This document shows positions 7,616 through 53,092 of a DNA stretch of 64,000 bases, piece after piece (position 1 is the first letter of the stretch; every line of letters starts with the position of its first letter). Under the pieces are notes generated by a model that ran no database searches, was not told the origin of the DNA, and saw nothing but the letters and a program-made list of their open reading frames with translations. Both the position numbers and the translations under genes were made by a program. Source of the stretch: Cetorhinus maximus (lineage: Eukaryota); assembly GCF_964194155.1 (NCBI RefSeq), contig NC_135901.1, positions 30,008,001 to 30,072,000 of the forward strand, given 5' to 3'.

Positions 7616-8621
7616 ATATGGCTAATGTTATATGGTACATATTAGATATATTATTTATGGTTCAGTAATAAGATACATTTTATTATTATTTCTAATCTTG
7701 TAATATAGTACTGTAACTAGGTTATATATTTTCAGTCAGAGTCATTATGGCACAGAAGGAGTCCATTCGGCAACTGAATCCATGCCGACTTTCTGCAGAG
7801 CGATCCAGTCAGTCCCATTGCCCCTCTATATCCCTGATCCCATGCAAGTTTATTTCCTTCACGTGTCCATCCAGTTTGATTTTGAAATCATTGATTGCCT
7901 CTGCTTCCACCATCCTCGTAGGCCGCGAGTTCAAGGTCATGACCACCTGCTTCTTCACCTGTGCCTTAACCAAGTGATGCTGTCCCAATGATGATGCAGG
8001 AAGATTTTCAGATCTCTGTGTCCAGGGGAATAAGCAATCAGCATTGATCTGTCGATCAGCATGAATCAGCGCCTTTCGGAGAATTGGGAGGGTGTATGTG
8101 AGGTACAGCAGAGTGAGAATGGAGGGAGAGTGTGTGGGTTGGAGATTTACAGCTTTTGGGGAACGATAGAGGAAAGAATGTTGCACAGGAACTAGAATTG
8201 CTTTCCTGAATTTCTATCCTGTACTGAGAGTGATGACTTTTGTAATCTCCTTTCACAGTAGATAAAAAGAGGAGTATTTTCAGAGAGAAATTTCACACTA
8301 AACATCACATCAAGGTCTGACAGAGTCACTCAATTCATGGGAACCAAACATCATCAGCCTTTGAATCTCGAAGGAGAAATGTTTGTCTGCTCTGCCTGCT
8401 TTGAACGGTTTTAAACACCAGTGTGACTGGAAAAGCACCGAGAGACACACACACCTGAGTGAGAGTGTTCCAGTGCACTGACTGTGGAAAGAGCTTTAAC
8501 CAGTTACACAGCCTGAAAAAACATCACCATTCACAGCGGGAAGAGACTGCACACATGTTGTGTGTGGGAACAATGCTACATCTGATTGTCAAACCTGGAA
8601 AGACACAAGGACAGCCGCACC

Positions 8622-9200
8622 ATGGAGAAACCGTGGACATGTGGGGACAGTGGGAAGGGATTCAAGAACCCATTCAAGTTGGAAACTCATCGACGCAGTC
8701 ACATTGGGGACAGGCCGGTCATCTGCTCTGAGTGTGGGAAAGGATTCAGTGATTCATCTGCCCTGCGGAAGCACTGGTAAGTTCACTCTGGGGAGCGGCC
8801 GTTCATCTGCTCTGCGTGTGGGAAGGGATTCACTCAGTTATCCATCCTGCTGACATACCAGCGAGTTCACACTGGGGAGAGGCCGTTCACCTGCTCTGAG
8901 TGTGCAATGGGATTCAAGCAGTTTTCCCACCTGCTGCAACACCATGTCACTCACACGAATGAGAGACTGTTTAAATGCTCACACTGTGGAAGTGGCTTCA
9001 AAAGCTCTCGGGAACTGGAGAGCCACCATCACATTCACACTGAGGAGAGACCTTTCAGCTGCTGAGTGTGGGAAGGGATTAAGTGATTCATCCGGCCTGC
9101 TGAGACACCAGCGAGTTCACACTGGGGAGACACCGTTCACCTGCTCTGTGTGTGGGAAGGGATTCACTCATTTATCCAACCTGCTGAGACTCCAGGTGAA
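8622..9200 (+). pseudogene. C2H2 ZNF pseudogene (Z3), about 7 fingers
   Basis: cgcaccATGG start, [17 protein letters not shown] at 8778-8780 in finger 2 and later frameshifts; family 3' UTR at 9205-9330. Confidence 0.85.
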
Positions 9201-10329
9201 AGTGATTCCAGGGATTGGATTCTGCTGTTTTTGCTGCTGTTACTTACAACAAGGACTGAACCATGTTCATTTGGACAGTTGGCGAAGTGGGAGGGTCAGA
9301 GGGTTTCTTTCTGCTGGACTGGCCGGTCTCACGACTTTGTTTCTAGTGGGCTGATGCTCTTTGAGCCTGAGAGTGCACATTTCCAATTAAATGATCCCCA
9401 AAAGCTGATGAAGTAAATTTATTTTATCCTGGACAGTAAATAGTGTTTTTCCTACCACTACAGGTAGATCTAAAATAAATACATTTGTCTCTGTTCCATT
9501 GAGTCTACAGCACAGGGCCAGGCCAGGCGGCTCAATTGGTCTCTGTCAGTATTTATGCTCCACATGAACCTCCACCCACCCCTCTTCATCTCCTCCCATC
9601 AGCATATCCTTCTATTCCTTTCTCCCTATGTATCTAGCTTCCCCTTAAATGTAATCATGCTATTAGGATAGTAGGATGAATTAGTGTTACAATCAATAGT
9701 TGGGACGGAATGTCTGGGGGGCACAGAGGTACATAGTGGCATTGCCATTGGACTAGTATTGCAGAGACCCCGGGTAATAATCTGGGGACCCGGGTTAGAA
9801 TCACACCACAGCAGATGTTGAAATTTGAATTCAACAAAAACCAGGATTTAAAGGTCTGATGACGACCATAAAACCATTGCTGATTGTTGCAAAAACCCAT
9901 TTGATTTGTTTCACTAATGCCCTCGAGATAAGGAAACAATTTGGGATGAGCCACCCACATCCCATTAACGATTGTAGGATGTTCTATGACATAATCATAA
10001 TCTTGAACAAATCTTTTGTCAATTTCTGTTTCAAAATATTCCTGTGAAAAACTTGGAACATGTTGTTACTTTAAAGGTGCCATATAAATATAGGTTGTTC
10101 TGTTACTGAAGGCTGTCACTTGAACTCCCCACTACTCCCAACTCCAAGACCCCGAAGATGAACAGTCTGATCAACCATCTCATTCCCACAGCACAGCCCA
10201 GACATTCTCAGTGAATCTCCTGTTCTCAGACTCCATTGTGACTCTGTCCCTGCTGTCTCACTGTGCTGAGCTCGTGTGTGAACAAAGCATTTATGTCTTC
10301 AGACTTTTACTCTAAGAGTTTTAACCCAT

Positions 10330-50074: not shown

Positions 50075-51470
50075 GTCAGTCTGGTGAAACTTCTCTGAAC
50101 TGCTTCCAATGCAAGTACATTCCTCCTGAAAATAGGAGCCCAGAACTGTACACAGTACTCGAGGTGTGGTCTCACCAATACCCTATACAGCTGCAGTAAG
50201 AATTCCCTACTTTTATACTCCATCCCCCTTGCAATAAAGGCTTACATTCCAATTGCCTTCCTCATTACTTGCTGCACCTGCAGACTGATCTTTTCTGATT
50301 CATGTGCAAGGACACCCAGATACCTCTGTACAGCAGCGTTCTGCAGTTTCTCTCTATTTAAATAATATTCTGCTTTTCTATTCTTCCTGCCAAAGTGGAC
50401 AACCTCACATTGTCACACATTAATATAAAAGCAAAAAACTGCGGATGCTGGAAATCGAAAACAAAAACAAAAATACCTGGAAAAACTCAGCAGTTCTGGC
50501 AGCATCTGTGGAAGGGAGCACAGTTAACATTTTGAGTCCGCATGACTCTTCAACAGAACTAAGGAAAAATAGTAAAGGGGTGAAATATAAGTTGGTTTAA
50601 GGGGGGTGGGGTTGGGACAAGAGAGCCTGATAGAGGGCCAGTGATAGGTGGAGACAACCAAAAGATGTCACAGACAAAAGGACAAAGAGGTGTTGAAGGT
50701 GGTGATATTATCTGAAGGAATGTGCTAATTAAGGGTAGAAAGCAGGACAAGCAAGGTACAGATTGCCCTAGTGGGGGTGGGGTGGGGTGAAGGAATTGAA
50801 AAAGGCTAAAAGGTAGAGATAAAACAATGGATGGAAATACATTTAAAAATAATGGAAATAGGTGGGAAAAGAAAAATCTATATAAATTATTGGAAAAAAC
50901 AAAAAGGAGGGGGAAAAATCAGAAAGGGGGTGGGGATGGAGGAGAGAGTTCATAATCTAAAATTGTTGAACTCAATATTCAGTCCGAAAGGCTGTAAAGT
51001 GCCGAGTCGGAAGATGAGATGCTATTCCTCCAGTTTGCGTTGAGCTTCACTGGAACAATGCAGCAAGCCAAGGACGGACATGTGGGCATGAGAGCAGGGT
51101 GGAGTGTTGAAATGGCAAGCGACAGGGAGGTCTGGGTAATGCTTGCGGACAGAACGAAGGTGTTCTGAAAAGCAGTCACCCAGTCTGCGTTTGGTCTCTC
51201 CAATGCAGAGGAAACCGCATTGGGAGCAACAAATGCAGTAGACTAAGTTGAGGGAGGTACAGGTGAAATGCTATAATGTCATACATTATACTCCATCTGC
51301 AAATATTTTGCCCCCTCACTATCCCTTGTGGACTCTTTGTAAAGTCCTCACAACTTGCTTCCCTAGTTATTGTTGTATTTTCGGCAAATTTGTCTACAAT
51401 ACAGTCAGTTCCTTCATCCAAGTCATTAATATGGATTGTAAATAGTTGGAGCCCCAGTACTGATCCCTGC
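50075..51470 (-). mobile_element. Intronic CR1 fragment with a nested Penelope-like element
   Basis: LVRPHLEYCVQFWAP and DKFAENTT motifs on either side of the insertion. Confidence 0.85.
50423..51276 (-). mobile_element. 5'-truncated Penelope-like element (GIY-YIG end and 3' UTR)
   Basis: Close match to 15435-16265; near-perfect 12-bp TSD tgtca(c/t)acatta at 50411-50422 and 51277-51288. Confidence 0.85.
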
Positions 51471-52252
51471 AGGACTATGGAGGCCGCAGGTTAAATATAT
51501 TCAAGACAGAGATTGATAGGTTTTAGATATTGAAGATATTCAGGGTTTTGGGGGATAGTTCAGGAAAATGGCACTGAGGCAGATCAGCCATAATCTCATT
51601 CAATGGTGGAGCAGGGTCAATGGGCTGAATTGCCTACTCCTGCTCATATTTCTTATGATCTCTGTGTCCTGGACAGGGAGTGGTGAGCGTGGATCTGTCG
51701 ATCAGCATGAACCTTCAGGAGAATTGGGAGGGTGCATATTAGGTACAGCAGAGTGCGAATGGAGAGAGAGAGTGTGTGATGGAGATTCACAGCTTTAGTG
51801 GAATGAGAGAGGAAAGAATGTTCCATAGAAACTAGAATTGTCTGTTCTGAATTTCTATCCTGTGCTGACAGTGATGTCTGTTGTGAATTCCTTTTACAGG
51901 ATACTAGAAGGGGAGGATTTGCTGACAGAAGGCTGAAATCAAAGGTTAAGATCTCACAGAGTCACTCGATTTATCGGAACCTGAATATGATCAGCTTTTG
52001 TATCAAGATGGAGAAATGTGTTCTGTGTTCTGTCTGCTTCAAAATGTTCTAAACATCAGGGGGACTTGAAAAGGCCCAAGACCCCCACACCCGAGTGAGA
52101 GCATTCCAGTGCACTGAGTGTGGAAAGACCTTTAACCAGTTACACAGCCTGAAAAAAAAATCACATCATTCACAGTGAGAAGAGACATTTTACATGTTCC
52201 ATGTGAGGACGAGGCTTCAACTGACCTGGAGAGAGACACAGACACGCACACC

Positions 52253-53092
52253 ATGGAGAAACCGTGGAAATGTGGGGACTGTGGGAAGGGATTCAAAACC
52301 CCATCGAAGCTGGAGACTCATCGACGCAGTCACACCGGAGAGAGACCGTTCACCTGCTTTGAGTGTGGGAAGGGATTCGCTCAGTTACACCACCTGCAGT
52401 CACACCACCAGGTTCACACTGGGGAGAGGCCATTCACCTGCTCCGTGTGTGGGAAGGGATTCGCTCGGTTATACAACCTGCAGACACACCAGCGAGTTCA
52501 CACTGGGGAGAAGCCGTTCACCTGCTCTCACTGTGGGAAGGGTTTCACTCAGTCATCCAATCTGCAGACACACCAGCGAGTTCACACCAAGGAGAGACTG
52601 TTCACCTGCTCTGTGTGTGGGAAGGGATTTACTCAGTTACCCAACCTACTTATTCACCAACAAGTTCACACTGGGGACAGACCATTTACTTGCTCTGATT
52701 GTGGGAGGGGATTCACTCGGTTATCCAACCTGCTGACACATCAGCGGGTTCACACTGAGAGGCTGTTCCCCTGCTCTGAGTGTGGGAAAGGATTCACTGA
52801 GTTCTACAGACTGCAGGCACACCAGCGAGTTCACACTGGGGAGAGGCCATTCACCTGCTCTCAATGTGGAAAGGGATTCGCTCGGTTACACCACCTGCAG
52901 TCACACCAGCAGGTTCACACTGGGGAGAGGCCATTCACCTGCTCCGTGTGTGGGAAGGGATTCGCTCGTTTATACAACCTGCAGACACACCAGCGAGTTC
53001 ACACCGGGGAGAAGCCGTTCACCTGCTCTCAGTGTGGGAAGGGTTTCACTCAGTCGTCCCACCTGCAGACACACCAGCGAGTTCACAAGTGA
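52253..53092 (+). CDS. Tandem C2H2 zinc-finger protein (Z12), 279 aa, 10 intact fingers, no effector domain
   Basis: cacacc[31 protein letters not shown] ... HQRVHK*; acceptor ttttacag at ~51899; family 3' UTR at 53093-53250. Confidence 0.9.

Follow-up and report, generated by a model that had tools for sequence, protein, structure and literature searches.

Studied vertebrate expansions of zinc-finger (ZNF) genes carry a repressor-recruiting domain, and the ZNF open reading frames (ORFs) of sharks and rays are uncharacterised in the papers we found. Can such a family expand as fingers alone? The question is raised by a stretch of the Cetorhinus maximus genome (contig NC_135901.1, positions 30,008,001 to 30,072,000), whose whole length of 64,000 nucleotides (nt) we call the window and number from its first letter. 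The original prediction, made from these letters, held that nine C2H2 ZNF copies start at an ATG that arose inside a former finger linker, with the older fingers upstream left as fossils in the 5′ untranslated region (UTR). Our analysis of the sequences makes it probable that these copies belong to a birth-and-death C2H2 family whose ORF runs from this linker ATG and is likely translated into fingers-only DNA-binding proteins.

All nine ATGs were found at the positions given (8622, 21730, 24576, 24751, 26006, 28380, 41223, 43570 and 52253), in the context accATGG in eight copies and acaATGG at 24576. The starts thus stood as placed; an intact frame follows only two of the nine, 41223 and 52253, which alone in the window reach the usual family end. 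We then took a census over 764 kb, made up of the window and 70 ten-kilobase pieces, 600 kb of them no more than 2 Mb away from it and 100 kb at 22 Mb. Copies were found with nhmmer and a first-finger anchor that excludes the ATG; 329 profile hits lay clear of piece edges, 100 passed the first-finger filter and 92 were kept, the eight dropped being four internal fingers, three sister-type or unclear starts and one misplaced anchor. The ATG is retained in 84 of the 92 copies, namely in all 32 with an ORF of at least 190 amino acids and in 52 of the 60 shorter ones, a degree of retention matched by only 3 of 317 triplets upstream. A purine occupies position −3 in every copy while −2 and −1 vary; among 113 upstream A columns, only 3 are free of pyrimidines. 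The first Cys of the ORFs comes after six residues, fingers run from residue 7 on, and intact ORFs end at most six residues past the last finger.

The majority sequence of the 92 copies bears out the fossil zone that had been described upstream, an acidic linker and three decayed fingers, and places it behind one common splice acceptor. From this acceptor, 364 nt upstream of the ATG, one frame leads into the fingers with three stops inside it. At the one 13 codons ahead of the ATG, 77 of the 92 copies have TGA, 6 TAA and 1 CGA. Since 25 of 35 copies taken from along the chromosome also have TGA there, this stop is inherited and did not arise repeatedly. Recurrent CpG decay was considered as its origin and rejected, with one CGA against 77 TGA and a mixed neighbouring CpG. 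A TGA at −198 is present in 58 of the 92 copies, and a TAA at −210 in 49 locally, while CAA dominates there chromosome-wide (19 CAA versus 5 TAA of 35). No census copy is open in frame from the acceptor to the fingers in the sampled regions, the longest open run being 58 of the 121 codons needed. That paralogues share stops, and that the N-terminal part was lost before amplification, had been proposed from the window; the stops proved to be family-wide in both census and chromosome sample, in support of this order of events. Selenocysteine insertion or read-through of the leader was also considered and rejected, as the upstream part carries a net frameshift in 67 of 92 copies.

The leader has decayed where the fingers behind the ATG have not. 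Indels per copy per 100 nt number 1.08 upstream of the ATG against 0.13 in codons 1–56 (8-fold), and 302 of the 359 upstream indels are not a multiple of three, although some of those counted will be alignment artefacts. New stops per 1000 codons amount to 26.7 in the linker and 13.7 in the fossil fingers compared with 3.2 in the coding part (4–8-fold). The plain ratio of nonsynonymous to synonymous change (pN/pS) separates the parts poorly (fossil fingers 0.63, coding fingers 0.57, linker 0.75), and the decay argument is therefore carried by indels, stops and core residues. At zinc-ligand and core codons, nonsynonymous and synonymous changes number 282 and 114 in fossil fingers versus 73 and 75 in coding fingers (p = 3e-6, on copies that are not independent).

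Selection behind the ATG was compared between the finger scaffold and the DNA-contact positions, as had been suggested with the original prediction, and it gave a clear answer for the scaffold and, as to positive selection, a mixed one for the contacts. Eight non-overlapping young paralogue pairs yielded a pN/pS of 0.43 (0.26–0.67) overall and of 0.09 in the core; judged by these sequence comparisons, the fingers-only ORFs are under purifying selection. Finger 1 stands out further: in 55 long ORFs it has Pro at +1 in 98% and Glu at +5 in 95%, both outside the search anchor, whereas 405 later fingers have Ser or Leu at +1 and Leu, Gln or Arg at +5. A Trp found in 55 of 55 first fingers lies inside the anchor, and so was partly selected for, and is not among the common residues of later fingers. 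Since finger 1 is constrained and a stop shuts its frame 13 codons before the ATG, the predicted protein must start at the linker ATG unless an exon is spliced into the last 36 nt before it, which hold no pyrimidine tract.

We also looked at how transcripts could reach this ATG. Most copies have a small CpG-rich peak 1–4 kb upstream. Near the window this peak is a common promoter cassette, often placed head to head with another, whose short first exon ends in a GT donor; other sub-lineages have other promoters. Such cassettes lie in the window too, and had been absent from the earlier account. At locus L109, donor 5811 is joined to acceptor 6681 across a GT..AG intron in contigs of three runs (X5, X14 and X15), while the joint of a fourth run (X2) differs by one letter. 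It is the only GT..AG joint among the 15 of 161 joints listed, and coverage bins drop to near zero over the intron. Neither a 50-nt second exon in the linker frame nor a donor-like site at −166 appears among those 15 joints. Splicing thus attaches the promoter exon to an acceptor some 360 nt upstream of the ATG, which places the fossil fingers in the leader of the transcript. Their earlier designation as 5′ UTR agrees with this joint and with a processed copy of a sister type (L157), in which three exons are joined and stops occur in all three leader frames. Among the leaders that could be modelled, 44 of 49 lack an upstream AUG in strong context, 43 copies not being modellable.

Some further observations concern the leader and intron. 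The intron holds a long interspersed nuclear element (LINE). In most copies exon 1 of cassette A carries an 8-codon upstream ORF in weak context (window 7140–7166 and 49538–49564, and homologues). Upstream of L004, L037, L051 and L059 the acceptor and linker start are duplicated beside the promoter and used as an extra leader exon. L157, L158 and L159 (on C3, C4 and C5) are dispersed copies in which similarity begins at the exon start. A leader block from −195 to −110 (about 52060–52145 in the window) has a conservation of 0.89–0.95 against mostly 0.80–0.87 in its flanks, in two samples, and may be an RNA or DNA element.

The size of the family was estimated in genome G000 (4.0 Gb). An exact 25-mer over the start has 397 matches and a looser start pattern 977, with none for a reversed control; of the first 100 listed of these 977, 85 lie on contig C24, 10 on C22 and 5 singly. 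ZNF copies with the internal-linker start therefore number about a thousand or more. Since the looser pattern catches 45 of the 92 census copies, it would put the family at roughly 2000 copies, an extrapolation from a local sample in which assembly duplicates may be included. Extrapolating in the same way from strictly intact census copies gives a few hundred intact genes, subject to the same local sampling and possible duplicates. The genes are clustered, with a tandem C2H2 array in one 3′ exon, and comprise many lineage-restricted ORFs with at least five fingers, as in a lineage-specific tandem C2H2-ZNF expansion. Among the proteins fetched, the first-finger motif occurs only in cartilaginous-fish or unnamed records. 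One intact 9-finger copy (L156, on C1) has a GC-rich, promoter-like unit repeated in tandem directly upstream of it.

We found no effector domain attached to these genes, in agreement with what had been noted for KRAB and SCAN in the window. PF01352 (KRAB) has one match in G000, on C34 (L061, C34:9123034-9123144), with 150 of 152 candidates scored; we take it to resemble the ancestral KRAB of PRDM9. For SCAN (PF02023) none of the best 150 of 4987 candidates lies on C24, and those 150 are scattered. The 4987 candidates are spread over many G000 contigs and probably sit in the gag of long terminal repeat retrotransposons. A BTB domain is absent from the ORFs, which leave no room for one (best 25 families per protein; no genome-wide BTB search was made), and a FiNZ-type coding exon is excluded by anatomy, exon 1 being unreadable into the fingers (no FiNZ profile was run). 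ORFs of the linker and cassettes have no Pfam match. A HMMER scan with the linker over 1.84 billion representative sequences returned 15 proteins, two of them unrelated repeats, and a word-index search with the linker returned no match. What precedes the linker in the matching proteins is unrelated, with no common domain, and the idea that an effector domain once lay upstream is not supported.

The closest named relatives are predicted shark and ray proteins. The same Met start recurs in predicted proteins of Heterodontus, Mustelus, Chiloscyllium and Pristiophorus; a prediction from Pristiophorus, a sawshark, terminates at the site of the −198 stop. As these genera span both shark superorders, the truncation is old. 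A sister subfamily, with 153 exact matches in G000, has Gly at the Met codon of the main family, lacks two of the fossil fingers and has its start Met at the end of the linker. Its linker too is broken, in 17 of 19 copies over the stretch read, and many of its copies (L002–L060; C24) share an upstream stop of their own. Two Heterodontus predictions have a third start Met, nine codons upstream; together with the sister start, this means that truncation was fixed more than once. Shark records automatically named "zinc finger protein 850/721/271/239-like" are the same proteins, several of them starting MEKPWKC; the names derive from mammalian similarity, and we found no family description under them.

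From these data the following history may be proposed. An ancestral gene would have lost its front end, and a Met at the old Gly codon of the linker would have taken over as the start. CpG decay of an ACG codon is a plausible, unproven origin for the ATG; a pattern with a Thr codon gives ACG in 76 of 80 matches. Segmental duplication, often in head-to-head orientation, would then have multiplied the short form. By leaky scanning, ribosomes would pass the weak upstream AUGs and initiate at the first AUG in strong context, that of the linker. The variable fingers would read lineage-specific DNA, most likely repeats if KRAB- and FiNZ-ZNFs are a guide. The proteins might work simply by sitting on their sites, or they might bring in partners that dock on finger surfaces, for which the fixed first finger is the best candidate.

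Several points weigh against translated, functional fingers-only proteins. The strict test of intactness was passed by only 18 of the 92 census copies. Contact positions have a pN/pS of only 0.62 (0.09–1.13) in the eight young pairs; among 31 deep paralogues they reach 1.45 in finger 1 and 2.51 in finger 2, values for which the core was conditioned by the finger filter and which saturation or finger shuffling may inflate. The modelled leaders carry 2–9 upstream AUGs. Some copies with ACG as start codon keep ORFs of 7–8 fingers. The mapping at L109 relies on short contigs of related organisms at 85% likeness, from four runs only guessed to be RNA, and its joint has sides of 22–34 letters, tests a single promoter type (A) and comes from a listing of 15 of 161 joints. 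As to the ACG copies themselves, L144, L147, L148, L153 and L155 (position 1504) have the same strong context and most lie behind the usual upstream stop; their open ORFs possibly reflect near-cognate initiation or recent loss of the ATG.

Other accounts differ in what they make of the same observations. Finger 1 could itself be the effector, a protein-docking module, in which case the family would not be functionally effector-less; this is compatible with a start at the linker ATG, and we entertain it as a tentative idea that would sooner prove wrong than right. The Pro, Glu and Trp described above set this finger apart from later ones, and a skate protein and the sister subfamily also have a finger of this type close to their front end. 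Residues −1 and +3 of finger 1, however, vary like DNA-reading ones, an end finger is less shuffled, which alone is enough to raise conservation, and no partner is known. A coding exon upstream that we have not seen, supplying an effector in some isoforms or sub-lineages, is very unlikely. It would fit the diversity of promoters among sub-lineages, given that the RNA check covered type A only, and 21 of 28 copies of cassette B offer an ATG in the linker frame within exon 1, at a rate that looks neutral. Yet that frame closes after 32–91 codons, and could at most possibly give a short peptide, while an exon joined at the −364 acceptor meets a stop ahead of the fingers in every one of the 92 copies. 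The 15 linker proteins, the missing pyrimidine tract before the ATG and the stops in L157 likewise speak against it.

The family might instead be largely a side effect of a chromosome that is unstable and prone to duplication, and might have little selected function or serve as RNA. Broken or uncertain copies (73 of 92), near-identical segmental duplicates and the more conserved leader block would be expected on this account; purifying selection on the finger core, retention of the ATG and its −3 purine, complete in long ORFs, and the same start across shark genera are not, and we consider it decidedly unlikely. Both the hidden exon and a mainly non-functional family are less likely than fingers-only proteins started at the linker ATG. 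A much bolder extension of that preferred reading, which we think improbable, would make this the largest transcription-factor family of sharks and one without an accessory domain, in which an old truncation was fixed repeatedly at different Mets and the specialised finger 1 serves as co-repressor dock, a third vertebrate ZNF solution to repeat silencing beside KRAB and FiNZ.

In the window, the copy at 52253 has the most complete anatomy. Its type A cassette (49088..49960, plus strand) is CpG-rich, with what we presume by eye to be NRF1- and ETS-like motifs, and contains a short non-coding exon 1 with a donor after 49571, the homologue of which was seen spliced in related-organism contigs. 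The last-exon leader (51900..52252, plus) comprises the acceptor, an acidic linker remnant and three fossil fingers with frameshifts and stops, and the intact ORF (52253..53092, plus) encodes 279 amino acids with 10 C2H2 fingers and no other domain. The other intact ORF (40216..41223, minus) encodes 335 amino acids with at least 10 fingers; it has lost its acceptor, and cassette B is fused to the linker remnant. Cassettes B (minus) and A (plus) lie head to head at 41508..42496, with exon 1 donors at 41673 and 42115. Copy 43570 has its fossil linker and fingers at 43206..43569 and an ORF of 332 amino acids at 43570..44568 (both plus), with an early stop and more fingers behind it.

ORFs broken after 43–165 amino acids are found in five copies. 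Copy 8622 has a type A cassette (6679..7483, plus; donor after 7173) and, with its fossil zone, occupies 8259..9354 (plus), broken after 52 amino acids; 21730 (20734..22026, minus) has a frameshift after 165, 24751 (24620..25090, minus) a stop after 43 and 26006 (25508..26365, minus) a break after 105. Copy 28380 (28210..29293, plus) has a frameshifted array and a partial fossil zone next to head-to-head cassettes A (minus) and B (plus) at 27474..28207; as in 41223, the acceptor is gone and the fossil zone is incomplete. Copy 24576 (24223..24590, plus) retains a fossil zone and stops four codons past the ATG. A tenth, decayed copy with ATA for ATG at 48297 lies on the minus strand (48100..48550, ends approximate). 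Between the genes are a short-period tandem repeat (3560–3990) and many LINE ORF fragments (15000–19500, 29400–32400, 53500–57000 and 60400–64000), which we take to be of CR1/L2 type.

Comparison with known systems suggests that this large and apparently undescribed family is a lineage-specific tandem ZNF expansion distinct from KRAB-, FiNZ- and SCAN-ZNFs; no published description of a fingers-only shark family was found in the literature searched, from which most subscription journals fall outside coverage. If the main shark family is indeed fingers only, the need of an effector domain for ZNF expansion becomes directly testable, and hundreds of gene models with invented upstream exons need correction. 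It resembles the tetrapod KRAB-ZNF clusters in its clustered birth and death, a last exon of spacer and fingers, a conserved scaffold and variable contact residues, and differs from them in lacking KRAB. Mammalian clusters are reported to have KRAB-less members (PMC2865497), as exceptions rather than as the amplified form. In the parts of the literature available to us, KRAB-box families are given as lost in cartilaginous fishes (PMC8455134), the load of retroelements in animals goes along with large ZNF expansions (Wells et al. 2023, PMC10547256), and PMC11620358 has no bearing on the start site. The accessible text of PMC10547256 leaves sharks out of its main part and only counts their ZNF ORFs in a table, which gives 703–3586 for each of six assemblies from sharks and skates and 475 for a chimaera. 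The ray-finned fish KRAB-like ZNFs (PMC11603059) are likewise ZNFs outside the KRAB/TRIM28 system and proposed transposon silencers; they have an N-terminal KRAB-like domain proposed to bind TRIM33, whereas the shark ORFs have only six residues ahead of the first Cys. The cyprinid FiNZ-ZNFs (PMC10547256) are also a lineage-specific tandem set, with hundreds of C2H2 genes on a single chromosome and the finger array in a single exon behind a short first exon. Their FiNZ is a conserved acidic domain of 28 amino acids in a coding exon of its own; in contrast, the acidic linker of the shark family is decaying, and no upstream exon is readable into its fingers.

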